A DNA stretch of 12,588 nucleotides, from the IMG/VR virus record IMGVR_UViG_3300032291_003166. One strand, 5' to 3'. Below, one piece after another: positions 1 through 12,124 of this stretch. A model generated the notes under the pieces. That model had not been told where the DNA came from and made no database searches. It saw nothing but the letters and a program-made list of their open reading frames with translations. A program made the position numbers and the translations under genes. This DNA is from a virus (taxonomy: Duplodnaviria > Heunggongvirae > Uroviricota > Caudoviricetes). Every line of letters begins with the position of its first letter. Position 1 is the stretch's first letter.

Positions 1-97
1 CAAATGATGCTTTATACTGCTCTGTTTGAGTTTTACCTATTGTTTGAGATAATGCTAATCCAGGAATTAACAATAATGCTAATAATAACTTTTTCAT
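1..97 (-). CDS. 5' part of a secreted protein running off the left edge (not in the ORF track); possibly CsgG/HfaB-like
   Basis: ATG at 97, 2 nt after the stop of 100..315, open to the edge: MKKLLLALLLIPGLALS|QTIGKTQTEQYKASF. Sec/SPI signal peptide with Gln at +1. The CsgG-like guess rests only on recalled similarity of this N-terminus and on the operon context. Confidence 0.8.
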   Translation of the reverse strand, partial: MKKLLLALLLIPGLALSQTIGKTQTEQYKASF

Positions 98-99
98 AA

Positions 100-315
100 T
101 TATGGTCTTGATGGCCATGTCCATCCTTTTTGTTTACTTCTTTTTACTAATAATAAACCTAAAATTATAAACTGTGCTATCCAAACTAATCCCATCCATT
201 CTGTATTACGCATTTGTTCATCAAATACAAACATAAATGACATTAAATAAGCGATAACAAGATTAAATAATATGGCTTGTTCAAAAGCTAAGTACCATTC
301 TTTTAAATTTTTCAT
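100..315 (-). CDS. small two-TM membrane protein, unknown function
   Basis: Two hydrophobic stretches (AILFNLVIAYLMSFMFVF; WMGLVWIAQFIILGLLLV) and a basic C-terminus. A-rich start context, tight operon spacing. Confidence 0.75.
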   Translation of the reverse strand: MKNLKEWYLAFEQAILFNLVIAYLMSFMFVFDEQMRNTEWMGLVWIAQFIILGLLLVKRSKQKGWTWPSRP

Positions 316-335
316 AAATTGTTTTTATTGTTCAA

Positions 336-590
336 TTAACCTTCTTCTTCGTCTTGTTTTTTATCTTTATTTCTGCTTAAAAATTTATCTAAAGATCCAA
401 TACCTAATGAACCTAAGCAAATAGTTAAGAATGAATTATAAATAAATTCGTTAATAACTAAATCTTTACCAAAATATCCTGTTACTAAATCAACAATCAT
501 TGCTATCACCATTACGGCAAATGATGCAAATCCAATTACTGATTTTTCATTAATGTCATTAGTATCTTTAAAAATATCTAAAAATTTCAT
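336..590 (-). CDS. holin-like two-TM membrane protein
   Basis: 84 aa with two hydrophobic segments (VIGFASFAVMVIAMIVDLVTG; FIYNSFLTICLGSLGIG) and a highly charged C-tail (RNKDKKQDEEEG). Topology resembles small holins; function not established. Confidence 0.7.
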   Translation of the reverse strand: MKFLDIFKDTNDINEKSVIGFASFAVMVIAMIVDLVTGYFGKDLVINEFIYNSFLTICLGSLGIGSLDKFLSRNKDKKQDEEEG

Positions 591-611
591 ATCTTAATTA
601 TTTAAATTTGT

Positions 612-1178
612 TTATCCTATTTGTTCTGCGTCTTCATCTTTGATTTTACCACATTTTAAACATTCTTCATCTCCGTCTCCATCTAAGTCTCCCCAAACGT
701 GTTCGCATTGACGATGCTCAAAATATTCATCTATATCTCCGTCTCCATCTGTATCTAATCCATCCATTACTCCATCTCCATCTTCATCGATTTCAACTGG
801 TTTAAATGCTACTTTTGGTGATTCAGTAGTAACTACTGGTAATACTATTGGAGTTGGTTCAACTGGTGGAGTTACTGGCATATCAGCAGTATTGCTTAAT
901 GTTGTGCCATCTTCTTCATCCATTTTCTGAACTAACATCTTATCTTTATCAGTATCAGAGAACCAGTAATCAATTATTTTACCATATGAACCAATAAAGG
1001 CACCTAATAATAACAATAATAATTCTTTCCATTCAGTTGCCATAGGAGTATTTAGCTGAATAGCAGCAAACATACCTCCCATTATTAACATAAATCCACC
1101 TAAGACCATAAATGTGATATACCATCTACGTCTCATCATTGCATTTAGCAATTCTTTAAATCCTGTTTGTTCTTTCAT
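612..1178 (-). CDS. two-TM membrane protein with Pro-rich linker and DxDxDG Ca-binding-like motifs
   Basis: TM1 WYITFMVLGGFMLIMGGMFAAI, TM2 LLLLLLGAFIGSYG, linker PVTPPVEPTPIVLP, three DxDGDG loops (DEDGDG, DTDGDG, DLDGDG) and C-x-H...C-x2-C at the C-terminus. Confidence 0.85.
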   Translation of the reverse strand: MKEQTGFKELLNAMMRRRWYITFMVLGGFMLIMGGMFAAIQLNTPMATEWKELLLLLLGAFIGSYGKIIDYWFSDTDKDKMLVQKMDEEDGTTLSNTADMPVTPPVEPTPIVLPVVTTESPKVAFKPVEIDEDGDGVMDGLDTDGDGDIDEYFEHRQCEHVWGDLDGDGDEECLKCGKIKDEDAEQIG

Positions 1179-1185
1179 AATCTAA

Positions 1186-1500
1186 TTACCAAGCTGGTGT
1201 TTCGTTCAATGCTTCTTTTTCTGATTTCTTTTTAGGTGCTGCTGGTTTCTCTTTAGTAGCAGGAGCTGTTTGATTGATAATAACAGTCTTACTAGGAGCA
1301 GCTTGTTGTTGTTGTTGGTTGGAGTTAGTAATATTAATTACTGGAGCTGGAGCGGCTGCTGGAGCTGGTTCGCTTCCACCACCAAATAATGTTGATCCTA
1401 ACCATGCACCACCTGCTGTTACAACTGTAGCTACGGTACCCAAAATAGTTTTTTTTACTCCTGACCAGGTTCCTTCGTGTTCTTGTGTTTCTTCTGACAT
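1186..1500 (-). CDS. single-TM low-complexity (Pro/Ala/Gln) protein
   Basis: Hydrophobic/Gly-rich segment ILGTVATVVTAGGAWLGSTLFGG followed by PAPAAAPAP, QQQQQ and a Lys-rich tail. 7-8 nt gaps to both neighbours. Confidence 0.8.
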   Translation of the reverse strand: MSEETQEHEGTWSGVKKTILGTVATVVTAGGAWLGSTLFGGGSEPAPAAAPAPVINITNSNQQQQQAAPSKTVIINQTAPATKEKPAAPKKKSEKEALNETPAW

Positions 1501-1508
1501 ATTCTTAA

Positions 1509-1877
1509 TTATTTAATTACTAATGGATATTTAACTTCTTTACCATTTATATCAATAAATATTAAATCATAGTCGCTCCTTGATAAATCTGATAAATCAT
1601 AGGTTTTTGTTGTTAAATTATCAGTAGCTGTAAAACTATATTTTTTAATTGGTTCTTCACTACCGAACGGAACGATTTGAACTGCATATTTTGATCCTGC
1701 TGTTGTTTCAAATTGAGCAACTACTGTATTATTAATTTGTTGGATTGACTTAATTGCGGTTGATGTTGATTTTACTCCTAAATCAATTTTAGGTGTAGGA
1801 ACGATATCAACTTTACGGCATGAAGCTACTCCTACTATAAAGGTTAAAATTACTAATATTACTTTTAATTTTTTCAT
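1509..1877 (-). CDS. lipoprotein with Ig-like domain resembling a T9SS C-terminal sorting domain
   Basis: SPII signal MKKLKVILVILTFIVGVAS|C. The C-terminal pattern YDLSDLSRSDYDLIFIDINGKEVKYPLVIK resembles the ID(L)SxLxxGxYx..KxVIK end of type A T9SS CTDs. CDS is solid; the fold call is tentative. Confidence 0.65.
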   Translation of the reverse strand: MKKLKVILVILTFIVGVASCRKVDIVPTPKIDLGVKSTSTAIKSIQQINNTVVAQFETTAGSKYAVQIVPFGSEEPIKKYSFTATDNLTTKTYDLSDLSRSDYDLIFIDINGKEVKYPLVIK

Positions 1878-1882
1878 TTTTG

Positions 1883-4006
1883 TTATTTATTAAAGTTATT
1901 ATATCCGGTTAATTTAATTTGAGTTGAATTTAATGTAATGCCTAATTGATTTCCTTTATCATCTGAAGCATCCATTGTTTTTGTAACTTTAATTGATGTT
2001 AATATATCTACACCATTGCCAATAGTAGAGAATTTTAATTTAAATGGAATATTATTTCCTGTAAATGGAGTTTTAGCATTTTGATCTAATGCTCCAAATT
2101 TTACTTTACCATCTTTTGAATGTGCAAATATAAACCAGGTATTAGGTAATTCAGATTTTAATTCATCAAATTTAATTTTAGTAGCATCATAAGTAAATTC
2201 AAATTGAACACCAGCTACTTTATTACCATTAGTATTAATTGTGATTGGTATTTCAATAACATTAGATGTTACTGTTGAATTTGATAAATTAACATCAATT
2301 GCAGGTATGTTGTTTGGAGTATTAATAAATTCCATAACTGCTGAATTATTAAAAGCACTATTAGTTGCTAAACTACTTAAAGCATTTGTTTTTATTAAAA
2401 TACCACCATTATTATTTATTGTTACTACTTGAGATGAATGTGATCTATTAACATCACCCCATAGTAAGTATTTTAAATCTAATACTGTATTAGTACCTAA
2501 TATTCCAGTTGTAATTGTTACTTTAGGATTTGTAATATCTTTCCAATTAGTACTAGTAATAGAACCCCATGATTTAGAAGGATCTGCACTAAATTCAAAT
2601 TCAGCTCTTAATCCAAAAGTATTACCTCCTGCATCTCTAATAAATCCAGGGTATGTTGAAGTAGCTATTGTGTTAAAATCTGAAGGTACTTTATAAGTTG
2701 CCCATGTTCCATTTTGAGAAACATATTCTACAGGACCTGAGTATAAATCGAATAATTGGAGACTTTTTATTTGGTCAGGATTAACTCCAGTACCGGTAAA
2801 TTCTCTCATATCAATATCTACTTTACTAACTCCTTGTCCGTATGTGTTTAAATAAAGAACACCCCATTCTACTTGTCCTGCAGTTGTAGTTGCATCAGTT
2901 GATCTCCAAGTAGGTAATGACATAAATCCATTACTACCAACATTATACTGTGCTGGGAGAGTAAATAATGTATCTAAACCAATTACTTGAGCTAATAATT
3001 GAGGTAAGTCGCCTCCATCAATAGTTTTATTTCTATTAATATCAGCAGCAAATAAAGATTGTCCTGTTTTTAGAATTTGTCCGTTAGAACCATCTAATCC
3101 CATTGTTGTAAATTCATTTTGCGCTGTAGTGAAATCAGATAATGTAATAGCATTATTATATGTATTATACATTTTATCCATTTCATGCATTATAGTTACA
3201 TCATATGTTTTATTTTCTTGTAATTGAGATTGATTAATATCTACAGTACCATCAGAATTTACATTAAATAATGCTCCTTGGTTTGTTGCTATATCTCTAA
3301 ATGAAACTTTAAGATTAGTTAATGCTAATAGATTAGAGTTAACATCTACTTTTGCAGTTACTAATTTACCAACGTTTTGATTCATATTAACTGTATTAGC
3401 TAATGGAGTACTTAAAAAAGTATCATTATATCCACCACTTGCATTCCAACCAGCTACAAAGTTTAATTTAATAGGATTAAATGTATATGCTGTAGATGAG
3501 GTTTTTAATCTAAATCTTACAATAATTAATCTATCAAATCCACCATAAGGCATTCCTGAATTTGTAGCCCATGTTAAAGTTGCTCTTAAAATAGCATTTG
3601 GACCTCCATTTTGATATGTATAGCTTAAGCCTGAGGTATATCTACTAGTACCATTAGTACTAGTTGTATTGCCGTTATATGTGTAATTAGGATAATTTTG
3701 CCAAGTTAATTGAATATTTGAACCACCAGGTAAAACACCACCATTACCTCCAGTACCTGTATGATTTACTGATACTACTTCAAAGTTATTTTGGTCGTAT
3801 TGGAAATCAAATAATAATTGACGAGTAGTAGTGTTTCCATTACCATTTGCATCAACTATAATATCAAATTCATCGCCTCTATTAATAGGCATACCGTTGA
3901 TATTAGTGTTTGTTGTTCCGTACTTAAGTTTAAATTGAATAGGGTTTTGAGCGAATGCTGTGAATCCTAAAGTTAAAGATGTTAGTAATACTAATAATTT
4001 TTTCAT
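1883..4006 (-). CDS. secreted cohesin-dockerin-cohesin domain protein (707 aa)
   Basis: SPI signal ending AFA|Q. N-terminal cohesin-like GDEFDIIVD..LLFDFQYDQNNFEVVSV; dockerin/EF-hand-like NAITLSDF...AADINRNKTIDGGDLPQLLAQVIG; LWGDVNRS; C-terminal cohesin-like IEIPITINTNGNKVAGVQFEFTYDATKIKF. Confidence 0.8.
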   Translation of the reverse strand: MKKLLVLLTSLTLGFTAFAQNPIQFKLKYGTTNTNINGMPINRGDEFDIIVDANGNGNTTTRQLLFDFQYDQNNFEVVSVNHTGTGGNGGVLPGGSNIQLTWQNYPNYTYNGNTTSTNGTSRYTSGLSYTYQNGGPNAILRATLTWATNSGMPYGGFDRLIIVRFRLKTSSTAYTFNPIKLNFVAGWNASGGYNDTFLSTPLANTVNMNQNVGKLVTAKVDVNSNLLALTNLKVSFRDIATNQGALFNVNSDGTVDINQSQLQENKTYDVTIMHEMDKMYNTYNNAITLSDFTTAQNEFTTMGLDGSNGQILKTGQSLFAADINRNKTIDGGDLPQLLAQVIGLDTLFTLPAQYNVGSNGFMSLPTWRSTDATTTAGQVEWGVLYLNTYGQGVSKVDIDMREFTGTGVNPDQIKSLQLFDLYSGPVEYVSQNGTWATYKVPSDFNTIATSTYPGFIRDAGGNTFGLRAEFEFSADPSKSWGSITSTNWKDITNPKVTITTGILGTNTVLDLKYLLWGDVNRSHSSQVVTINNNGGILIKTNALSSLATNSAFNNSAVMEFINTPNNIPAIDVNLSNSTVTSNVIEIPITINTNGNKVAGVQFEFTYDATKIKFDELKSELPNTWFIFAHSKDGKVKFGALDQNAKTPFTGNNIPFKLKFSTIGNGVDILTSIKVTKTMDASDDKGNQLGITLNSTQIKLTGYNNFNK

Positions 4007-4494
4007 TTAGTTAAGTTTTCTACTAATTTAATACATGCTTTTTTTACTGCTTGTCTAGCAGCTTGTTGATTAAAACCTCCACCAGAGTCGATGGCTATTG
4101 TAGAACTGGAGATTTCGGATGAAGATTCTTCAACGATTGTTTCTTTAATCTTCTTATCTCCTTTATATAGAGTACCTTTTATTCTAATAATCGTTTCTGC
4201 TTCATTTTTATGAAATACAGATAAATTAGAACTAGTATTTACAATATCAAAATAAATTAATTCAGCCTGTAATACATAATCAGATGAATCCTGAGTTGTT
4301 GCTAATGCATATTCTTTATCTGCTAATGCTTCTGATAGAATATTTTTAACACCTAATGTTAAATTAACATTGCCTGCTAACAGACCCATTCTAATACTAT
4401 TTTTAACAGGAAGAATATATACTTTTTTATTTATTTCTCTACCACCTGTTAATAAAATGGATATAAGTAAAAATAATACTATTAAATATTTCAT
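4003..4494 (-). CDS. exported protein with CsgG/LptE/TolB-N-like alpha/beta fold
   Basis: Signal peptide MKYLIVLFLLISILLTG, then KVYILPVKN (beta), helix GVKNILSEAL, DYVLQAELIYFD, and C-terminal helix AARQAVKKACIKLVENL, which is the CsgG-like pattern. 4-nt ATGA overlap with the next gene. Confidence 0.6.
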   Translation of the reverse strand: MKYLIVLFLLISILLTGGREINKKVYILPVKNSIRMGLLAGNVNLTLGVKNILSEALADKEYALATTQDSSDYVLQAELIYFDIVNTSSNLSVFHKNEAETIIRIKGTLYKGDKKIKETIVEESSSEISSSTIAIDSGGGFNQQAARQAVKKACIKLVENLTK

Positions 4495-4584
4495 ATACGA
4501 TTTTAAGTTTTATATTTTTCAAAACAACACTAACCTAAATTATAAAACCGTATTTTAATACTTGTCCATAAATATGAAGTAAAT

Positions 4585-4617
4585 AAAGAACAACAAAAGC
4601 CCCGAATGGAGCTTTTG
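4585..4617 (-). terminator. intrinsic terminator downstream of tmRNA
   Basis: Minus strand CAAAAGCTCC-ATTC-GGGGCTTTTG TTGTTCTTT: stem with one G-U pair followed by a U-rich tract, starting 6 nt after the tmRNA discriminator. Confidence 0.8.
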
Positions 4618-4623
4618 ATTTTG

Positions 4624-5031
4624 TGGAGGTGAAGGGATTCGAACCCTTGTCCTGTTACAGCAGTTATAAAACAATTTATTACAAGCTTAGATCTGATAAA
4701 ATCTGATCAGTAAGGGCCGACCGTTTTTGGATGATCGAGTTCCACCATTTAATTTTTAAGGAATTAAAAAACCTTTAAATACCTAGTTACGTTGCTAAGC
4801 AAGAGGCTTTACTAGGCCAACGTGTAACCCTTATGTTCCTAGGTTGGTTACCACCTGATTGAATTAAGCAGCTACTGCTAAATCCGCTCCTACGAATGCC
4901 ATAGCATCTTCGAAAGAGAAAGTTGACTTGTTGTCGTTTATTATTTGAATATACATTTTATAGTGCTATACTATTCATCGCACTGCTTGTTGTCTCACAC
5001 TTTCATTGCCCAGTCAATTCCGGACACCCCC
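4624..5031 (-). ncRNA. ssrA: tmRNA (transfer-messenger RNA), 408 nt
   Basis: 5' GGGGGTG pairs with 3' CACCTCC-A, including the G3-U70 alanine identity pair. D-loop-like GGAATTGAC, T-arm AAGGG-TTCGAAT-CCCTT, helix 2 ACAAGC/GCTTGT, internal tag frame ending LAVAA-stop. CCA is not encoded (discriminator followed by CAA). Confidence 0.95.
4864..4938 (-). other. tmRNA proteolysis tag reading frame: (A)NDNKSTFSFEDAMAFVGADLAVAA*
   Basis: Frame read directly from the sequence; TAA at 4866-4864. Resume codon placed at AAC because UA sits at -5/-4 (UAAUA|AAC) as in E. coli UAGUC|GCA. The resume position is inferred. Confidence 0.8.
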
Positions 5032-5042
5032 GTGTTTTAGAG

Positions 5043-5071
5043 AATAAAATTAAGCCGCCCGAAGGCGGCTT
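5043..5071 (-). terminator. GC-rich UUCG-tetraloop hairpin, terminator-like
   Basis: Minus strand AAGCCGCC-TTCG-GGCGGCTT then AATTTTATT, directly after the stop of 5077..5271 and about 20 nt before the tmRNA 5' end. The U tract is imperfect on minus (TTAATTTT) and TTTT on plus. Confidence 0.7.
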
Positions 5072-5076
5072 TTAAT

Positions 5077-5271
5077 TTACTTTGCAGATGAAATATCACC
5101 TGCATTCACCTGAAGTGAATCATTTAATTTAGTAGAATCAGTTGAAACTGATGTGGTGTCTACTAATGTTGAGTCAACAGTAGTTGAATCTGTTGATGTA
5201 GTACTAACATTTGAACTAGTACATGCTGCAAACATACATACTGCAGCTAAAGCGATAAACATTGTTTTCAT
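5077..5271 (-). CDS. small Ser/Thr/Asp-rich lipoprotein
   Basis: SPII signal MKTMFIALAAVCMFAA|C; the 48-aa mature part contains DST, DST, DTT, DST, DSL. Confidence 0.85.
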   Translation of the reverse strand: MKTMFIALAAVCMFAACTSSNVSTTSTDSTTVDSTLVDTTSVSTDSTKLNDSLQVNAGDISSAK

Positions 5272-5327: not shown

Positions 5328-5759
5328 TTATATTGATTTTATTTTATATAATTTTGCTTTATTATACGATATAGCTTTTTCATTTGGATTAATTAAGATA
5401 TCAATTTTCTTTTTCCATCTTTTATTCATCAAATCTCTAACCGTATAAATTCCACTTCTTTTTCCTATTCCCTCTACTCTTACTTTTTCGCCATATTTAA
5501 ATTTTCTTTTCAAATCATGACTCACAGCTATTATCCTATGTTTTTTAGGATTGGTTTCACTAATTATAAAACCACTTGCTGTTTCTGTTGGTGTACTATC
5601 TGTTTGTTTTTCATCCACTGTATACATGGTTGCTTTAACCCGATAGAATTCTTCTACTTCTACTTTTTCTTTTTCAAGTGCTCGTTTATGAATTTTATTT
5701 CCAATTGCCATTGGTATTATTAATAATGACCAACTTAAAAACATAACTATTTTTTTCAT
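5328..5759 (-). CDS. 3D (three-Asp)/RlpA-like double-psi beta-barrel protein, putative peptidoglycan-binding or lytic transglycosylase-like
   Basis: N-terminal hydrophobic signal/anchor, then VKATMY..QTDSTPTETASG..IIAVSHDL..GEKVRVEG..YTVRDLMNKRWKKKIDI, the characteristic 3D-domain pattern. Confidence 0.8.
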   Translation of the reverse strand: MKKIVMFLSWSLLIIPMAIGNKIHKRALEKEKVEVEEFYRVKATMYTVDEKQTDSTPTETASGFIISETNPKKHRIIAVSHDLKRKFKYGEKVRVEGIGKRSGIYTVRDLMNKRWKKKIDILINPNEKAISYNKAKLYKIKSI

Positions 5760-5812: not shown

Positions 5813-7462
5813 TTAATAACCCATTCCTGGATCTCCAAATTCATTTTCATTTTTCTTATCCTTAGTTGGTTCTTCAAAAATAACAGTCTCAGTTGTTAAT
5901 ATTGTACCTGCTACAGCAGCTGCATTTTCAACGGCTAAACGAGTTACTTTAGTTGGATCCAATATACCTGCATCTAACATATTAACGATTAATTCAGACT
6001 TTAAATCATATCCTAACCATGTATTTTCTAACGCGGTCTTCAATAATTCGTAAATATAAAAACTTGGATTATCATAACCAGCATTTGTTAAAATTTTCTG
6101 GAATGGAGATGATAATGCTTTATAAACAATTTGTTTACCTACATTAAAGTCAACACCATCAGATTTAGCTTGAGTAATTGCTTCTCTAGCGTATAATAAA
6201 GCAGCACCACCACCTGGTAAAATACCTTCCTCATTAGCAGCACGAGTTGCAAATAAAGCATCTTCTACTCTATCTTTATATTCTTTTAACTCGATTTCAT
6301 TATTACCACCAACATTAATAATAGCTACTCCACCTGCTAATTTAGATAATCTTTCTTGTAGTTTTTCTTTTTCAAACATTGATTGAGCATTATCAATCTG
6401 TAACATGATTTCTCCTGCTCTAAGATTAATTGCTTCTTCATTGCCTTTACCATCAATAACAGTTGTTTTTTCTTTGCCTATAGTAGCTGTTCTAGCACTA
6501 CCTAAATATTCTGTTAATTGAGATGGTGTTAATTTATCTAATTTAATACCTTTTTCTTTAGATATTACTTGACCACCAGTGATAATTGCTAAATCTTCTA
6601 ATAATAATGTTTTGCGTTCACCAAAGTCAGGTGCTTTAACAGCACATGCTTTAACAATACCTCTCATTTTATTAACAATTAGAGTTGCTAATGCTTCGCC
6701 TTCAATTTCTTCTGCTACAATTAATAATGATTTATTCTCACTATTAACCTTTTGAAGAACATTTAAAATTTCTGATGCGGTAGTAATACGACCATCATAT
6801 ATCAAAATAAGTGGTTCATCTAAAACAGCTTGCATTGTATTGTTATTGGTAACAAAATATGGTGATTTGTAACCTCTATCAAACTGAATACCTTCTACTA
6901 CTTCAAGTGATGTTTCACCTGTTTTACTTTCTTCAATAGCCACAACTCCTTCTCTACCTACTTTCTCAATTGCTGTTGCAATTAATTCACCAGTTGATTC
7001 ATCATTGTTAGCTGATATTGTTGCTACTTGTTTTAGTTGTTCTTCAGATGAAATATCTTTACTATTTTCTCTTAAAGCACTAACTACTTGTTTCACAGCA
7101 GCGTCAATACCTTTTTTAATCTCAACCGCATTTGCTCCTGATCTTACACTAGATAATCCTTCATTTATCATAGCATAAGCTAACAATGTAGTAGTTGTTG
7201 TACCGTCACCTGCGGTATTAGCAGCTTTAATAGCTGCTTGTTTAACAACCTCAGCGCCGATGTTTTCAATTGGATCTTTTAAGGTAATTGACTTTGCGAC
7301 TGTGACCCCATCTTTAGTTGACTGAGGTAACTCATTTGATTTCTCTATAATAACATTACGACCAAATGGACCTAATGTAGACGAAACTGCATCTGATAGT
7401 TTTTTAGCACCATCGGCTAATTTCTGTCTTGCTTCTTGATTGTACTCTATAATCTTACTCAT
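5813..7462 (-). CDS. groEL: group I chaperonin GroEL (Cpn60), phage-type
   Basis: STLGPFGRNV, TKDGVTVA, AGDGTTT, GIQFDRGYKSPYF, KAPDFGERK, RVEDALFATRAA, GILDPTKVTR. The GGM-repeat tail is reduced to DPGMGY. Confidence 0.97.
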   Translation of the reverse strand: MSKIIEYNQEARQKLADGAKKLSDAVSSTLGPFGRNVIIEKSNELPQSTKDGVTVAKSITLKDPIENIGAEVVKQAAIKAANTAGDGTTTTTLLAYAMINEGLSSVRSGANAVEIKKGIDAAVKQVVSALRENSKDISSEEQLKQVATISANNDESTGELIATAIEKVGREGVVAIEESKTGETSLEVVEGIQFDRGYKSPYFVTNNNTMQAVLDEPLILIYDGRITTASEILNVLQKVNSENKSLLIVAEEIEGEALATLIVNKMRGIVKACAVKAPDFGERKTLLLEDLAIITGGQVISKEKGIKLDKLTPSQLTEYLGSARTATIGKEKTTVIDGKGNEEAINLRAGEIMLQIDNAQSMFEKEKLQERLSKLAGGVAIINVGGNNEIELKEYKDRVEDALFATRAANEEGILPGGGAALLYAREAITQAKSDGVDFNVGKQIVYKALSSPFQKILTNAGYDNPSFYIYELLKTALENTWLGYDLKSELIVNMLDAGILDPTKVTRLAVENAAAVAGTILTTETVIFEEPTKDKKNENEFGDPGMGY

Positions 7463-7745
7463 AAACTGCTAATATTTCTGTTTCTTTAGTTATGTAATAA
7501 TCTTCTCCATCAACAGTAAGTTTCATTGATCCCATCTTAGGAATAAGTACCTTATCACCTGCTTTTAGTTGAGATGGATACAATGCACCTGTATGCCAAT
7601 TGTATGTATCACTAGATTCAATTACTTCACCTATTTCAGGTTTCTCTTTCCCCATATCGGGAACTACAATGTTGCCATAAGTTTGTTCTTCTTCTTCAAT
7701 AGGTCGAATCACAACGTGGCCATTTAGTGGTCTTATTTTGCTCAT
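7455..7745 (-). CDS. groES: co-chaperonin GroES (Cpn10)
   Basis: IRPLNGHVVI, mobile loop TYGNIVVPD, GEVIES, LKAGDKVLIPK, EILAV; 8-nt overlap with the groEL start. Confidence 0.95.
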   Translation of the reverse strand: MSKIRPLNGHVVIRPIEEEEQTYGNIVVPDMGKEKPEIGEVIESSDTYNWHTGALYPSQLKAGDKVLIPKMGSMKLTVDGEDYYITKETEILAVYE

Positions 7746-8014: not shown

Positions 8015-8680
8015 TTATCCTTTGATTAAGGATTTAGCTGTTTTGATTTCGATTTTTTTAGGTTTATTTTCTTTAGCGAATGGAATCTCTAATGTTAATA
8101 ATCCTTTATCTAAACTAGCTATTAATTTAGCTAATTCATACTTAGAAGATACCTTCCAAGCAATATCGAATCCTGCCTTTTTAATTGAACGATGTAAGTA
8201 TCGGTACTCATTTTTCTCCTTTTCTTTATCGTCATCTGTTTTACGATAAGCTACTCTTAAAGTTTCTGAGTCTACAATAATATCGATTTCTGAGTCCTCT
8301 AATCCTACTGCGGCAATTTCAATTTTTAAACCGTTATCGGTTTCTTGAATGTCAACTGGGTGTTGAACTGCTTTTTCTGAGATTGGTCTGTAATGTGCAT
8401 TTTTATCGAAGAAAGACTTCCATAATAAATCCATTGTTTCATCAAAGTTCCAATAATCGTTATAGGTTTGAGGTATTTGGTGGGGTTGTTGCCAGATGGC
8501 TGTTGTACCAATATTTGATAAACCTGTTAAATATCCTGCTGTACCATGTGTACTTGTTAGAGTCGTACCTGAAGTGTACGTTCCGTTTGTTAGTGATGTT
8601 GTAGAGTTGGGATATCCAGTTGTTATTGTACCAGATAAATCTTCAAATACTACGAACACGTCTGTAGTTTGTTTTTTCAT
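8015..8680 (-). CDS. hsp20: small heat shock protein (Hsp20/alpha-crystallin domain) with Thr/Gly-rich N-terminal extension
   Basis: HPVDIQETDNGLKIEIAAVGL..IDIIVDSETLRVAY..RSIKKAGFDIAWKVSSKYELAKLIASLDKGLLTLEIP..KKIEI (I-x-I motif). The start could alternatively be the Met at 8434. Confidence 0.9.
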   Translation of the reverse strand: MKKQTTDVFVVFEDLSGTITTGYPNSTTSLTNGTYTSGTTLTSTHGTAGYLTGLSNIGTTAIWQQPHQIPQTYNDYWNFDETMDLLWKSFFDKNAHYRPISEKAVQHPVDIQETDNGLKIEIAAVGLEDSEIDIIVDSETLRVAYRKTDDDKEKEKNEYRYLHRSIKKAGFDIAWKVSSKYELAKLIASLDKGLLTLEIPFAKENKPKKIEIKTAKSLIKG

Positions 8681-8771: not shown

Positions 8772-8803
8772 TAAATATACTAGTTATCAGAAAGACGAAC
8801 AAG
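8772..8803 (-). promoter_or_regulatory. candidate promoter for hsp20 (CTTG-N20-TATATTTA)
   Basis: TTG at 8802-8800 and TATATTTA at 8779-8772 with a 20-nt spacer. Confidence 0.6.
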
Positions 8804-9514
8804 ATAGTAAATAGATTCTACCTCTTCTTCTTTAAATGTTAATTTCATTAATCCTTCATTACTAATCTGAATTAATGCTTCACTAGCATCTTCATTTGCT
8901 TTTAATACTTCAGTCATTATATCAGCAGGAAATGGTAATTCACTTAAACCAAATAATGCCTCACATGGTGTTTTAAATTTAATTTTATTAGCATAGCCTG
9001 CTCCATCTCCTAATACAATTACACATTCCATACCTTCACCCTCAGTATATTCTGCTTTAACAGAGAATTGTTTAATATCACCTAATGCTTTTTTAGCATT
9101 AATAAATTTACTAATAAATTCTTTACTAACTGGAACTTCAGCATCATAGCCATTTGGTTCATTAATCACAGGTACTGTTTCAATTAAATTTAAATCTGAT
9201 AGATAGTAATTTAAGTCATATTGATTATCAGCTATTGTTAATTCAAGTGGTGTTCCTCTTCCACTTTTATTTAAGTTTAATACAATAGTAGAATCCATAA
9301 TCTTAATTAATTTAGAAAATTGACTAGTATTGTAAATACCAATTTCACAATTTTCTAGATCAAAATTAGGACTAGTCACTTTACCCACTAGATTTTTAAA
9401 CGGACTTATAAAGTCAACAGTAATGTTTTTTTTATCTACTGACCATTTAACTGATTCAACTATACCATTTAGATAATATTTTTCGAGAACTGATACGATA
9501 GTGTTTTTATTCAT
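8780..9514 (-). CDS. DNA polymerase sliding clamp (T4 gp45/PCNA-like)
   Basis: 244 aa with alternating beta/alpha pattern, a PCNA-like ending (LMKLTFKEEEVESIYYLVRL), directly downstream of a family B polymerase. Confidence 0.75.
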   Translation of the reverse strand: MNKNTIVSVLEKYYLNGIVESVKWSVDKKNITVDFISPFKNLVGKVTSPNFDLENCEIGIYNTSQFSKLIKIMDSTIVLNLNKSGRGTPLELTIADNQYDLNYYLSDLNLIETVPVINEPNGYDAEVPVSKEFISKFINAKKALGDIKQFSVKAEYTEGEGMECVIVLGDGAGYANKIKFKTPCEALFGLSELPFPADIMTEVLKANEDASEALIQISNEGLMKLTFKEEEVESIYYLVRLSDN

Positions 9515-9518
9515 GATG

Positions 9519-9550
9519 TTAATATAATAATCTTTTTAGAATGAGAAAAA
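9519..9550 (-). promoter_or_regulatory. weak candidate promoter for the clamp gene (TTTT-N20-TATATTAA)
   Basis: TTATTATATTAA just upstream of the clamp ATG resembles the other leaders; both elements deviate from consensus. Confidence 0.3.
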
Positions 9551-12124
9551 CTTATTTACATAAGCGTTTAATGAAGGAAATGACCATTTTAAATCTTCAT
9601 ATATACCTTGTAGTTTATTTAATAATGTTGAATTAAACCCAGCTTCTTTATCGATAAACTTAATTATAAAATCAGTTATAAATTCTGGATCGTTACCTGT
9701 GAAACCTAATACTTCTATTTTATATGGGTTATCTTTTAATTGAACATAATACATTTTATCACCTTCAGTAAAACACGGATATTGTTTATCTAATTTTTTA
9801 AATCGCAATAAATCATTATGCCATATAGCTGCTTTAGTATTAATAGGACATTTTAATTCTAATTTAGAAAATATTTGACCAGCTTGAGGAGGTGACTTAA
9901 TATATTTTTTAATATTTCTAACACCAGTTGGTTTTGCTATACTTTTAATAGGAACAGAATCTAATGTTTTCTTAAAATCAATAATCTTTTTATCAATATC
10001 TGTTTTGGTTTTACCATACATTATATCTAATAAAATACCTTCACCAAATTTACGATACATTGGATTCATGTTTGATTTCATTACATCCATTCCTTTAATA
10101 TCTAACTCTTCAGTTGGTACACCTTCTTTATTTACAATGAATTGAGCGTAACGTCTTTTACCTGCAAAGTAACCTCGTTCAAGTACTACTTCTTGTTTTA
10201 ATTCAAAATATTCATTATCAACATTGAATAAATCTTTACATAAATTTTGTAAGAACGGACCAGTTTTATCTTGATATTCTTTAGTTATTTCAAGTGCTAT
10301 TGGTACTACTTCTTCTCTACTATTAATATTAATATCTGGTTTACGTTTTAAAATTAAATCCTTTAATTCAAAAAATAAACTATCTGTATCAGCGGTAATA
10401 ACATAATCTCTTTCAACACCTAATTCAGTACTAACTTCTTTATTTATAAAATCAATTGATTCTTGATCCAACCTTTGACCAGTTAAAGTAATTGCTTTAC
10501 TAATAAATAAATTACCATCACTATATCTCCACCCGTTTTGAGCAAATACACCATAAACGTCATTTAATTTAATTTTAAATGTATGTTGTAAACGATTATA
10601 ATGCTCTCCCTTAGCAGTGTCGCCCGCTTTATATGCTTGCTTCATTAAGTCTTTATATTGTTTTCTCTTATTAAACCAATCGTTTAATATTTCCACTACA
10701 ATACTTGACTTATCTTTTCTAAATAAAGTTCCATTAGCTGATATAATTAATTTATTAGTTTCAACTAATTGAATCATATCTTTTACTTTGATATAAGTTA
10801 ATTTAACTCTTCTATCTGATGTAACTTTTTCAATTGGTATTTCTTCCTCACCATCCATTTTCTTTAAATCACCTAAACCCCACTGGTTATCATACTTATG
10901 ACTATTTTGTATTCTACCAATTAATGTTTCTATACCCATATTTAAATTACGAATAATAGATGGATATAGTGATGTAAAATCTAAATCGGATACCCACTCA
11001 TATAAACCTGGTACTGGATCTTTAAGATACCCACCAGCGTATTCTTCATTTGCTTCTCTTAATGCTGGATTATAAGTAGTAGGTTTATTTGGTGATACTA
11101 TATCTTCACGTTTTAGATAAGTGAAAATAGCACCTTCATTTAATGAAGTAGAGTAATAAATATTACTATATGGTGTATGACATAAATGACATATGTTAAC
11201 TGTTAAATCTATAAATTGTAATTTTTTATCTAATTCAATTAATATTTCAACATCTCGAATATTATAATCAATAAATTTATTTACATCTTCTTTAAATAAT
11301 CTATCTAATGATCCCTCATATTCAATCTTACCTAACTTAACATATTTTTCACCTATGTCTCCTAATTTATATGACGGTTCTTGCTTCATAATATATTTTT
11401 TATGAAGTAACATATAATCGAGATGGTTAACACCTGCTATATTAATTACAGATTCATTAGTTTGAGTTTTCTTATTAAAATAATCATGTACAGATACAAT
11501 ACCTAGTGGTGATAATTCTTTAGCTTTATGTTCACCTAATACTTTACAGATACGATGATATAGATAAGGTATATCAAAAAATTCACTATTCCATCCAGCA
11601 ATAATAGTTGGATCTGCTTCAACCCATAATGATACAAATTTATGTAATAAATCTGCTTCACTATCACATGGTATAATTTCTTTATTATCTTCTAAAGCAA
11701 ATTTTAATTGTTTTTTTTCATCTAAAATTAAACAGTAGTATTTTTTAAGAGTAACATCATATAAAGATATTGATGTTATTTTCATTGGTGCTGATTTAAT
11801 ATACTCAGTAGTTAATGCCCCACCAATTTCACACTCAATATCTAGAAATAGTACATTATGATATTGTGGTGCTTCATCTTCATTTTTATAAGCATCAACT
11901 AATATCCTAGTTTCCATAGGAACATCAATTTCATAGTAAGTTAAAGGATCGTTTTTATCACAAGTACGTGATGGAGATACTCGTTTACCATCTAATGTTT
12001 TATATTGGCCATTAGGATCGAGTTTATAATAGGTAGGATAATATTCAAATGATAACCATCCTTGTTTATCATCTCTTAGATGACACGTTTTTGTTTTATA
12101 ATCGTAATATATTCCCTGATACAT
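9536..12124 (-). CDS. family B DNA polymerase (T4 gp43-like) with 3'-5' exonuclease
   Basis: ExoI LFLDIE, ExoII GWNSEFFDIPY, ExoIII YNIRDVE, motif A DFTSLYPS, motif B KIKLNDVYG, motif C TADTDS, KKRY-like KRRY, IKGMD, and a hydrophobic clamp-binding-like tail NKFFSF. Confidence 0.97.
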   Translation of the reverse strand: MYQGIYYDYKTKTCHLRDDKQGWLSFEYYPTYYKLDPNGQYKTLDGKRVSPSRTCDKNDPLTYYEIDVPMETRILVDAYKNEDEAPQYHNVLFLDIECEIGGALTTEYIKSAPMKITSISLYDVTLKKYYCLILDEKKQLKFALEDNKEIIPCDSEADLLHKFVSLWVEADPTIIAGWNSEFFDIPYLYHRICKVLGEHKAKELSPLGIVSVHDYFNKKTQTNESVINIAGVNHLDYMLLHKKYIMKQEPSYKLGDIGEKYVKLGKIEYEGSLDRLFKEDVNKFIDYNIRDVEILIELDKKLQFIDLTVNICHLCHTPYSNIYYSTSLNEGAIFTYLKREDIVSPNKPTTYNPALREANEEYAGGYLKDPVPGLYEWVSDLDFTSLYPSIIRNLNMGIETLIGRIQNSHKYDNQWGLGDLKKMDGEEEIPIEKVTSDRRVKLTYIKVKDMIQLVETNKLIISANGTLFRKDKSSIVVEILNDWFNKRKQYKDLMKQAYKAGDTAKGEHYNRLQHTFKIKLNDVYGVFAQNGWRYSDGNLFISKAITLTGQRLDQESIDFINKEVSTELGVERDYVITADTDSLFFELKDLILKRKPDININSREEVVPIALEITKEYQDKTGPFLQNLCKDLFNVDNEYFELKQEVVLERGYFAGKRRYAQFIVNKEGVPTEELDIKGMDVMKSNMNPMYRKFGEGILLDIMYGKTKTDIDKKIIDFKKTLDSVPIKSIAKPTGVRNIKKYIKSPPQAGQIFSKLELKCPINTKAAIWHNDLLRFKKLDKQYPCFTEGDKMYYVQLKDNPYKIEVLGFTGNDPEFITDFIIKFIDKEAGFNSTLLNKLQGIYEDLKWSFPSLNAYVNKFFSF

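Follow-up and report, generated by a model that had tools for sequence, protein, structure and literature searches.

The window examined here, a stretch of 12,588 nucleotides (nt) taken from the virus record IMGVR_UViG_3300032291_003166 (Caudoviricetes), carries at positions 1–4494 a block of consecutive genes whose products are all directed to the cell envelope. These genes, A163, B707, C122, D104, E188, F84, G71 and the 5′ end of H, are best read as the larger part of a conserved phage operon, the products of which go to all layers of the envelope of an infected member of the Bacteroidota. Comparison with related sequences indicates that the module is real, widespread and uncharacterised. 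We infer for it a function in envelope remodelling and surface display, in co-transcription with lysis genes, and hold this view with about as much doubt as confidence.

Layout and conservation of the block

All sizeable open reading frames (ORFs) of the window are located on the minus strand (Table 1). The genes from A163 through G71 are separated by gaps of -4, 5, 8, 7, 21 and 20 nt. The distance between G71 and H is 2 nt if H starts with the ATG at position 97, which opens a signal peptide of the type MKK..., while a start at position 124 gives an overlap of 25 nt. The first-pass annotation of this DNA, which had proposed an envelope-assembly operon, gave the same spacing, and its last value of 2 nt holds with the start at 97. 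The block also lies, as had been claimed, downstream of the terminator of a transfer-messenger RNA (tmRNA) gene, since a terminator-like hairpin follows the tmRNA detected with Rfam.

Export signals and membrane segments were called by hydropathy scan. A hydrophobic segment, either N-terminal or internal, was present in all eight products of the block and in none of the seven replication and chaperone products of the window. Signals of the cleavable type were found in A163, B707 and H, and a lipobox in C122. One weaker transmembrane segment was present in D104, and two such segments each in E188, F84 and G71. The ORF calls and the scan thus bear out the initial view that at least eight consecutive genes encode exported or membrane-bound proteins, and the signals on all eight products support the suggestion that these act in the envelope. 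The exported block is in fact longer than first stated, because the products of both protein genes located upstream of the tmRNA (5077–5271 and 5328–5759) are exported as well. The entire run comprises ten consecutive genes for envelope-directed proteins.

Single-sequence scans against Pfam, PHROG and NCBIfam covered all eight block products and revealed nothing significant besides a cohesin match below threshold in B707. The search of IMG/VR with B707 and A163 yielded 22 loci on contigs of 5–310 kb, which were analysed by tblastn and ORF clustering and are cited below by their numbers (L001 and so on). A synteny search had been named in the first-pass annotation as a check on the operon; run across these phages, it showed that the succession of A, B, D and H is shared by 21 of the 22 loci, representing at least nine distinct lineages, and is rearranged in one cultured phage. 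The exception among the IMG/VR loci is L004, in which the similarity is limited to a short part of B707. Orthologues of A can be as little as about 45% identical and those of B about 27%, and the genes flanking the loci are unrelated to those of the window. The order is therefore kept by selection and not by recency.

In the relatives, H is followed by a gene designated I (412–598 amino acids, aa) and usually by a further gene, J (580–764 aa), both of which encode signal peptides. E188 is present in 18 of the 22 loci; L001, L002 and L004 lack it, as does the cultured phage. The occurrence of C122 is restricted to the window and L001–L003, and orthologues of G71 were restricted to L001 and L002, where the gene likewise immediately precedes H and is coupled to it. 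F84, or an analogous 84-aa gene with two transmembrane segments, either heads the block or lies within it.

The cultured relative is the Flavobacterium phage vB_FspM_immuto (MW353177; L023), in which a rearranged module occupies gp13–gp19. These genes correspond to a J-like lectin, the N-terminal half of B, a protein with a cohesin domain and a tail typical of a type IX secretion system (T9SS), D, H, I, and an A-like protein. In comparison with the window, B is split into two genes, A is located downstream, and E188, C122, F84 and G71 are missing. The immuto H is 50–57% identical to the H orthologues of the loci, and its D (gp16) shares 64% identity over the N-terminus. The genes gp13–gp19 are annotated as lectin, hypothetical, cohesin and hypothetical. 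Our search of the literature found no description of the combined module or of the function of the immuto genes.

The best matches of the DNA polymerase PolB to polymerases of T4-type cyanophages indicate that the window belongs to a large T4-like phage and is not a segment of a bacterial chromosome, in line with the initial assignment. When the whole window was compared with GenBank phages by megablast, no match was obtained. The host is probably a Flavobacterium-type member of the Bacteroidota, because T9SS domains are present in B orthologues and because the cultured relative is immuto.

Products of the module and their surroundings

Two proteins of the module are related to CsgG. The first-pass annotation had recognised a CsgG/LptE-like protein in A163. 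The AlphaFold2 model of A163 (11-sequence alignment) had a predicted local distance difference test (pLDDT) value of 82. The best Foldseek matches were PelC, Cj1090c, GNA1162, CT253 and LptE, with E-values of 6e-7 to 1e-4 and template modelling (TM) scores of 0.45–0.57; these were followed by CsgG. The predicted structure confirms, at the level of the fold, that A163 has the PelC/LptE fold of the CsgG clan. The early designation holds for A163 in this sense, while the true CsgG-family member, by fold and by profile, is H. Orthologues of A163 with 43–66% identity occur in 21 of the 22 IMG/VR loci. No sequence match to A163 was found in Pfam, NCBIfam or PDB, including a family-profile search of PDB sequences. 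The signal peptide contains no Cys across 11 orthologues, so that the protein would carry no lipid anchor.

The tests of H were run on the full-length orthologue from L002, the N-terminus of which matches the 41 H codons present in the window; relatives show that proteins of this family comprise about 245 aa. The AlphaFold2 model of the L002 protein (pLDDT 83.5) retrieved CsgG as all of its top 24 Foldseek matches in PDB, with E-values down to 5e-8 and TM scores up to 0.60. Alignment of the H family profile with Escherichia coli CsgG by hhalign extended over 226 columns with a probability of 91.9% and an E-value of 7e-7. Exhaustive phmmer searching with H gave 200 representatives; among 37 aligned full-length homologues, CsgG (PF03783) was detected in 14 (best E-value 1.9e-17) and LpoB in six. 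H itself has no Pfam match at E < 0.1, and the search of PDB sequences with its profile returned only noise. The feature search of the ESM Atlas with H points to CsgG, HfaB and LpoB, and the nearest Atlas clusters are 100% viral. Taken with the predicted structure, these results identify H as a divergent CsgG-family protein. The family comprises 5,527 clusters at 90% identity (E ≤ 1e-3).

A distant homologue of H (30% identity) is encoded in a bacterial sequence, L027:3675-8051 (GCA_029261835.1), where it is located between genes for caspase-like Peptidase_C14/CHAT and 243-aa proteins and a gene for a 419-aa protein. The same neighbours surround a distant H homologue in contig L028. This arrangement may represent the bacterial source module of the phage H–I pair.

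The C-terminal part of I (approximately 195 aa) resembles DUF2490/OMP_b-brl barrels, with TM scores by target of 0.66–0.74 in the low-confidence model of the Atlas. The I protein of the relatives is predicted to be a barrel in the outer membrane that bears a tethered head. J contains Lectin_C and Ig_7 domains, and over its C-terminal 180 aa or so it is homologous to the dockerin-like module in the centre of B.

B707 had been interpreted as a cohesin–dockerin scaffold. Its match to the Pfam family Cohesin (PF00963; residues 583–696, E-value 5e-4) scored 20.7 bits, below the cutoff of 24.1, but the orthologue from L003, which is 50% identical, reached 40.2 bits, and immuto gp15, annotated as cohesin, matches residues 546–662 of B707. 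The family-profile search of PDB sequences with B found nothing. The Cohesin matches support the assignment of B707 to a cohesin-domain family. The dockerin part of the interpretation is suggested by a Ca-loop motif, D-x-N-x-N-x-x-x-D-G-G-D, which is invariant in the alignment of all B orthologues. The homologous C-terminal module of J gave weak dockerin matches (E-values 0.016–0.03).

In L007, L013 and L019, the last 85 aa of the B orthologue form a T9SS type A sorting domain (Por_Secre_tail, PF18962/TIGR04183), with Pfam scores of 31–34 bits (cutoff 27) and TIGR04183 scores of 25–28 bits (cutoff 23). The tail of immuto gp15 is of the same T9SS kind. Proteins are delivered by the T9SS to the cell surface. 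Because the type A sorting domain in these phages is genuine, B in most lineages would be a cargo of the host T9SS, handed over for surface display. The alignment shows that the 85-aa C-terminal extension is missing from B of the window, L001, L002 and L003, and these four are exactly the ones that possess the lipoprotein gene C122. In the clade of the window, loss of the sorting domain in B thus appears to correlate with the gain of C122.

C122 had been regarded as a T9SS-CTD-like lipoprotein. The lipobox VASC agrees with its being a lipoprotein; its likeness to a T9SS C-terminal domain was not upheld. Alignment of the C122 family with the sorting domains of B by hhalign gave a probability of 1.4%, and Pfam and TIGRFAM gave no match, so that C122 was rejected as a split-off sorting domain. 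No family match for C122 was found in Pfam, PHROG or TIGRFAM scans. The predicted complex of B707 and C122 scored 0.10 against a mark of 0.32, which counts neither for nor against binding.

D104 has a conserved acidic N-terminus, a transmembrane segment at residues 18–40, an extended P/A/Q-rich part and an invariant C-terminal Trp. It is present in 21 of the 22 IMG/VR loci and as gp16 of immuto. This composition suggests that D104 is bitopic in the inner membrane and could extend as far as a partner in the outer membrane. We attribute an 80-aa ORF antisense to D104 (1274–1516, plus strand) to the low-complexity Pro/Ala/Gln coding region; that it represents a gene is very improbable.

E188 is the best-conserved protein of the block, with 71–75% identity to orthologues where A163 shows about 45%. 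Its residues 49–91, i.e. 43 residues covering the second transmembrane segment and the juxtamembrane region, are 100% invariant across lineages whose neighbouring proteins share 27–45% identity. A variable linker comes next, and after it an acidic part that is again invariant and contains three loops of the type DxDGDG as well as a C-x-H...C-x-x-C motif. No family match to E188 was found in Pfam, PHROG or NCBIfam.

F84 (84 aa) possesses two hydrophobic segments and a K/D/E-rich tail. Its orthologues in L001 and L002 are located a few nt upstream of a gene for a GH19 endolysin, and the L003 orthologue precedes, by two genes, a GH19 endolysin that contains a peptidoglycan-binding domain. F84 matched no holin family, and no endolysin gene adjoins it in the window. 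Of the holin-like membrane proteins first proposed, F84 is the one that convincingly looks like a holin, given its two transmembrane segments, charged tail and proximity to endolysins in relatives; E188, with its conserved DxDGDG loops and Cys/His motif, is something else. In the closest relatives, the GH19 endolysin gene inside the module is directly followed by a gene for a conserved 197-aa protein (L002:11724-12317 and L001:11682-12272). This protein matched no family and is possibly another cell-wall enzyme.

The region at the head of the module probably contains the operon promoter. The word GGGATATTTAT, related to ATATTTAT of the window, is found once, and once only, in each of 10 related loci, every time a short way ahead of the first module gene. 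The window shows no enrichment of the 8-mer ATATTTAT; the T4 late-promoter word TATAAATA is likewise not overrepresented, and the module is preceded by no copy of it. In a 310-kb relative, GGATATTTAT is present in three copies only, which equals the control, and the genes that follow the other two copies give no clue, so that none of these words points to early or late expression. A search of RNA runs turned up none that contains the region.

The tmRNA that forms the upstream boundary of the module was missed by ARAGORN, though it is found by Rfam. As in the window, the block abuts a tmRNA or a divergent array of 21–26 tRNA genes in many relatives. Such arrays are located next to the head of the module in the jumbo relatives L007 (60-7164), L008 (331-7191), L009 (311-7275) and L013 (1614-7207), and in L019 a tmRNA adjoins the module copy. 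The 143-aa protein encoded upstream was considered as a lytic enzyme with a 3D domain, and this was not supported by searches of Pfam, NCBIfam or PDB, which gave no match. Farther upstream, the 244-aa product is tentatively taken by us to be a sliding clamp, and the putative GroES-like and GroEL-like products were recognised by eye from their translations.

Table 1. Features of the 12,588-nt window, listed in the order of transcription
Feature	Position	Strand	Remarks
T4-type PolB	9536-12124	-	Best matches T4-like cyanophage polymerases, 29-35% identity
244-aa product	8780-9514	-	ORF call
Hsp20-type protein	8015-8680	-	Family search
GroES-like product	7455-7745	-	Putative; read from translation
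GroEL-like product	5813-7462	-	Putative; read from translation
143-aa protein	5328-5759	-	N-terminal signal or anchor; phrog_21574 (PHROG E-value 9e-22), a function-unknown family
64-aa lipoprotein	5077-5271	-	Lipobox FAAC; Ser/Thr-rich mature part
Terminator of the 64-aa lipoprotein gene	5052-5071	-	Own terminator of that gene
tmRNA	4621-5031	-	Upstream boundary of the module; Rfam RF00023, 77 bits (cutoff 47), E-value 7e-29, full-length model match
Terminator-like hairpin after tmRNA	4594-4617	-	10-bp stem, then T-run
Promoter-like region heading the module	4539-4575	-	ATATTTAT at 4568-4575 overlapping TGGACA-18-TATAAT; consensus scan, 11/12 matches
A163	4003-4494	-	Secreted protein of predicted PelC/LptE/GNA1162 fold, CsgG clan; non-lipoprotein
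B707	1883-4006	-	Sec-exported; probable cohesin domain(s); invariant dockerin-like Ca-loop; T9SS sorting domain absent here
C122	1509-1877	-	Small lipoprotein; lipobox VASC
D104	1186-1500	-	Predicted bitopic inner-membrane protein
E188	612-1178	-	Two transmembrane segments; acidic DxDGDG loops; C-x-H...C-x-x-C motif
F84	336-590	-	Holin-like; two transmembrane segments; charged C-terminal tail
G71	100-315	-	Small protein with two transmembrane segments; translationally coupled to H
H, 5′ end only	2-124	-	Alternative starts at 97 and 124; encodes signal peptide plus first residues; continues past the left edge

Possible functions of the module

According to the reading that we favour, envelope remodelling and surface display, D104 and E188 would be the inner-membrane parts, with D104 reaching across the periplasm, while an outer-membrane platform would be made up of A163, H and I. 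The displayed output would be B, joined by J in those phages that have it, as a Ca-dependent sugar-binding assembly of the cohesin/dockerin type. Display of B and J would change what the surface of the infected cell sticks to or exposes, resulting in adhesion or receptor masking. F84 would be the holin, co-transcribed because the operon belongs to the programme of envelope and lysis functions.

Several observations weigh against this reading. The phage members of the H family have signals of the signal-peptidase-I type without a lipobox Cys, while the consensus of bacterial homologues has a Cys in this position. The segments of H aligned to the TM1/TM2 hairpins of CsgG are 4–8 residues shorter and bear conserved charges on both faces; these include Glu158, which is present in 28 of 35 sequences. 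The model of H also fits the pre-pore form of CsgG (TM score 0.58–0.60, root-mean-square deviation (rmsd) 4–5 Å) better than the membrane form (TM score 0.50, rmsd 10 Å). Because of the missing lipobox, the shorter, charged hairpins and the better fit to the pre-pore form, the role of H as an outer-membrane pore is doubtful, and the protein may be no outer-membrane pore or platform at all. In B, the Ca-loop motif is what speaks for a dockerin, and the family PF00404 gave no Pfam match. Pfam and TIGRFAM detected no T9SS sorting domain in B707 of the window, so that surface display of this particular protein would have to be argued from its orthologues. Finally, the composition of the module is not fixed, because E188 and C122 are patchy: the former is absent from the closest relatives and the latter from most lineages.

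Rather unlikely, in our judgement, is a cassette for lysis or disruption of the outer membrane. Here, F84 would be the holin and D104, together with A163, H, I or C122, would replace the spanins, or else the CsgG-fold protein would time lysis. We know of no spanins recognised in Bacteroidota phages. The neighbourhood of F84 is in agreement with such a cassette, as its orthologue directly precedes the endolysin gene inside the module in L001 and L002 and lies two genes before it at the head in L003; even so, most lineages have no endolysin within 8 kb of the module, nor is there one inside the block of the window. D104 has a type II topology like that of an i-spanin, and the gene for the lipoprotein C122 adjoins it. 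The periplasmic part of D104, however, is of P/A/Q-rich low complexity and is not a coiled coil, and C122 is missing from most lineages. The pair D104 and C122 was accordingly rejected as a two-component spanin, since it lacks a periplasmic coiled coil and C122 occurs in 4 of about 10 lineages while D is universal. A spanin-like overlapping gene pair is present in L002 (6635-7325), just upstream of the A163 orthologue, and is absent from the window. It encodes a 116-aa protein with an N-terminal transmembrane segment and a coiled-coil-like part, and a 138-aa protein with a signal peptide, a heptad-like region and a C-terminal hydrophobic segment. A role in lysis has also been proposed for the CsgG of phage Melnitz (PMC9004378). 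The lectin, cohesin and T9SS-cargo parts, in turn, have no obvious role in lysis, and about 10 kb of coding sequence is far above the size of any known lysis system.

Unlikely as well, and slightly more so, is a self-contained phage apparatus of a hitherto undescribed kind. Its outer-membrane station would comprise a ring of non-lipidated H together with A163 and I, would be linked by D104 and E188 to the inner membrane, and would hold or export the Ca-dependent B/J assembly for sticking to new hosts or particles or for receptor masking. In the clade of the window, where the sorting domain was lost and C122 gained, this apparatus would be independent of the T9SS.

An improbable alternative is a curli-type (type VIII) secretion system, in which a pore made of H would export a fibre-forming substrate such as the low-complexity protein I or B. 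The membership of H in the CsgG family by fold and profile agrees with it, as does the long low-complexity region of I, which is encoded next to H in the relatives; CsgG/CsgF clusters of phages are also known (PMC7029224). However, no homologue of CsgE, CsgF, CsgA or CsgB was detected in the Pfam, PHROG and NCBIfam scans of the neighbouring genes in the window and the loci, and the C-terminus of I is a barrel and not an amyloid repeat. The absence of any such relative from all loci, together with the features of H listed above (no lipoprotein signal, shorter and charged TM1/TM2 equivalents, and a model nearer to the pre-pore than to the membrane form), makes a curli-type system unlikely.

About equally improbable is superinfection exclusion by an outer-membrane block of the TraT/Llp/Cor type, closing the phage's own receptor or entry route. 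This would be a sub-case of surface remodelling and overlaps with display. The receptors of Flavobacterium phages are often surface proteins that depend on the T9SS or on gliding. The envelope location of all products is compatible with exclusion, and Foldseek gave a match of A163 to the surface-exclusion lipoprotein TraT. This match is weak (E-value 7e-5, TM score 0.42 by query and 0.32 by target, rmsd 16.6 Å), far weaker than those to PelC and LptE, and known exclusion proteins are encoded by single small genes.

A chance run of unrelated exported 'moron' genes in a variable region would fit with the tRNA arrays or tmRNA that border the region in many relatives and with the acceptance of insertions (a TonB-receptor-like gene and a lipoprotein gene in L001, endolysin genes in L001–L003), but it is very improbable and is largely refuted by synteny, as the order A-B-D-(E)-H-I is kept at about 45% identity of A and 27% of B among unrelated flanks, the genes overlap or lie 0–21 nt apart, and H and E are very strongly conserved. 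The insertion in L001 (12364-15821) comprises a gene for a 752-aa TonB-dependent-receptor-like protein (Plug and OMP beta-barrel) and one for a 400-aa lipoprotein, and looks like a SusC/SusD-like pair.

Relation to known phage systems

It is known that single phage genes can alter the surface of the host, for instance by O-antigen modification or by coding for exclusion lipoproteins. With about ten genes and with products assigned to the inner membrane, the periplasm, the outer membrane and the cell surface, this conserved operon is much larger than anything characterised so far. It is also very common, since the H family alone comprises more than 5,500 clusters at 90% identity in aquatic metagenomes. 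If the reading as envelope remodelling and surface display is true, the module would explain how abundant freshwater phages of Bacteroidota, with no recognised spanins and with T9SS-dependent display, manage the envelope. A version of the module is carried by a cultured pair, phage immuto and Flavobacterium sp. LMO8, which makes this reading directly testable. The twist specific to the window is the loss of the T9SS tag and the gain of the lipoprotein C122.

The small lipoproteins PelC and LptE of the CsgG clan each partner an outer-membrane barrel, PelB and LptD, respectively. A163 shares their fold, and the module in the relatives also encodes a barrel protein, I, with which A163 may pair. 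It differs from PelC and LptE in having an ordinary signal peptide, no lipid anchor and no sequence similarity to them. H shares its fold with E. coli CsgG (PDB 4UV2/4UV3) and the CsgG/HfaB family, and the two can be aligned over the full length (see the hhalign result above). The identity between H and E. coli CsgG is about 10%, and H is not lipidated, has shorter and charged equivalents of TM1/TM2, and is not accompanied by curli partners.

CsgG/CsgF clusters were reported for pelagimyophages of the HTVC008M group and for the OM43 phage Melnitz, and capture of sibling cells, uptake and timing of lysis were proposed as their roles (PMC7029224, PMC9004378). As in the present case, these are T4-like aquatic myophages with a CsgG-family gene in a small operon for exported proteins, and Melnitz also possesses a tmRNA. 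Their CsgG, however, is recognisable by sequence and comes with CsgF, and their hosts are Proteobacteria. In the module described here, there is no CsgF, H has no direct Pfam match, no lipobox and polar hairpins, and the host appears to belong to the Bacteroidota. The partners are different as well: a protein of PelC/LptE fold, a cohesin-containing T9SS cargo, a barrel with a tethered head, and a lectin.

Phage-encoded cargo of the T9SS with type A sorting domains, variable between phage variants, was described for the 'Cryophage' (Bellas et al. 2020; PMC7468147). In both cases, proteins of Bacteroidota phages bear a C-terminal type A sorting domain and would be exported by the T9SS of the host. 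The cargo proteins of the Cryophage, glycoside hydrolases and a PA14 protein, are encoded by single flexible genes, whereas the cargo considered here is one fixed member of an operon, with the domain lost in the clade of the window. The initial statement that no characterised phage system has this composition is thus nearly right for the whole, while its parts have precedents (PMC7029224, PMC9004378, PMC7468147). The module is a new combination of such parts and not a system already characterised.

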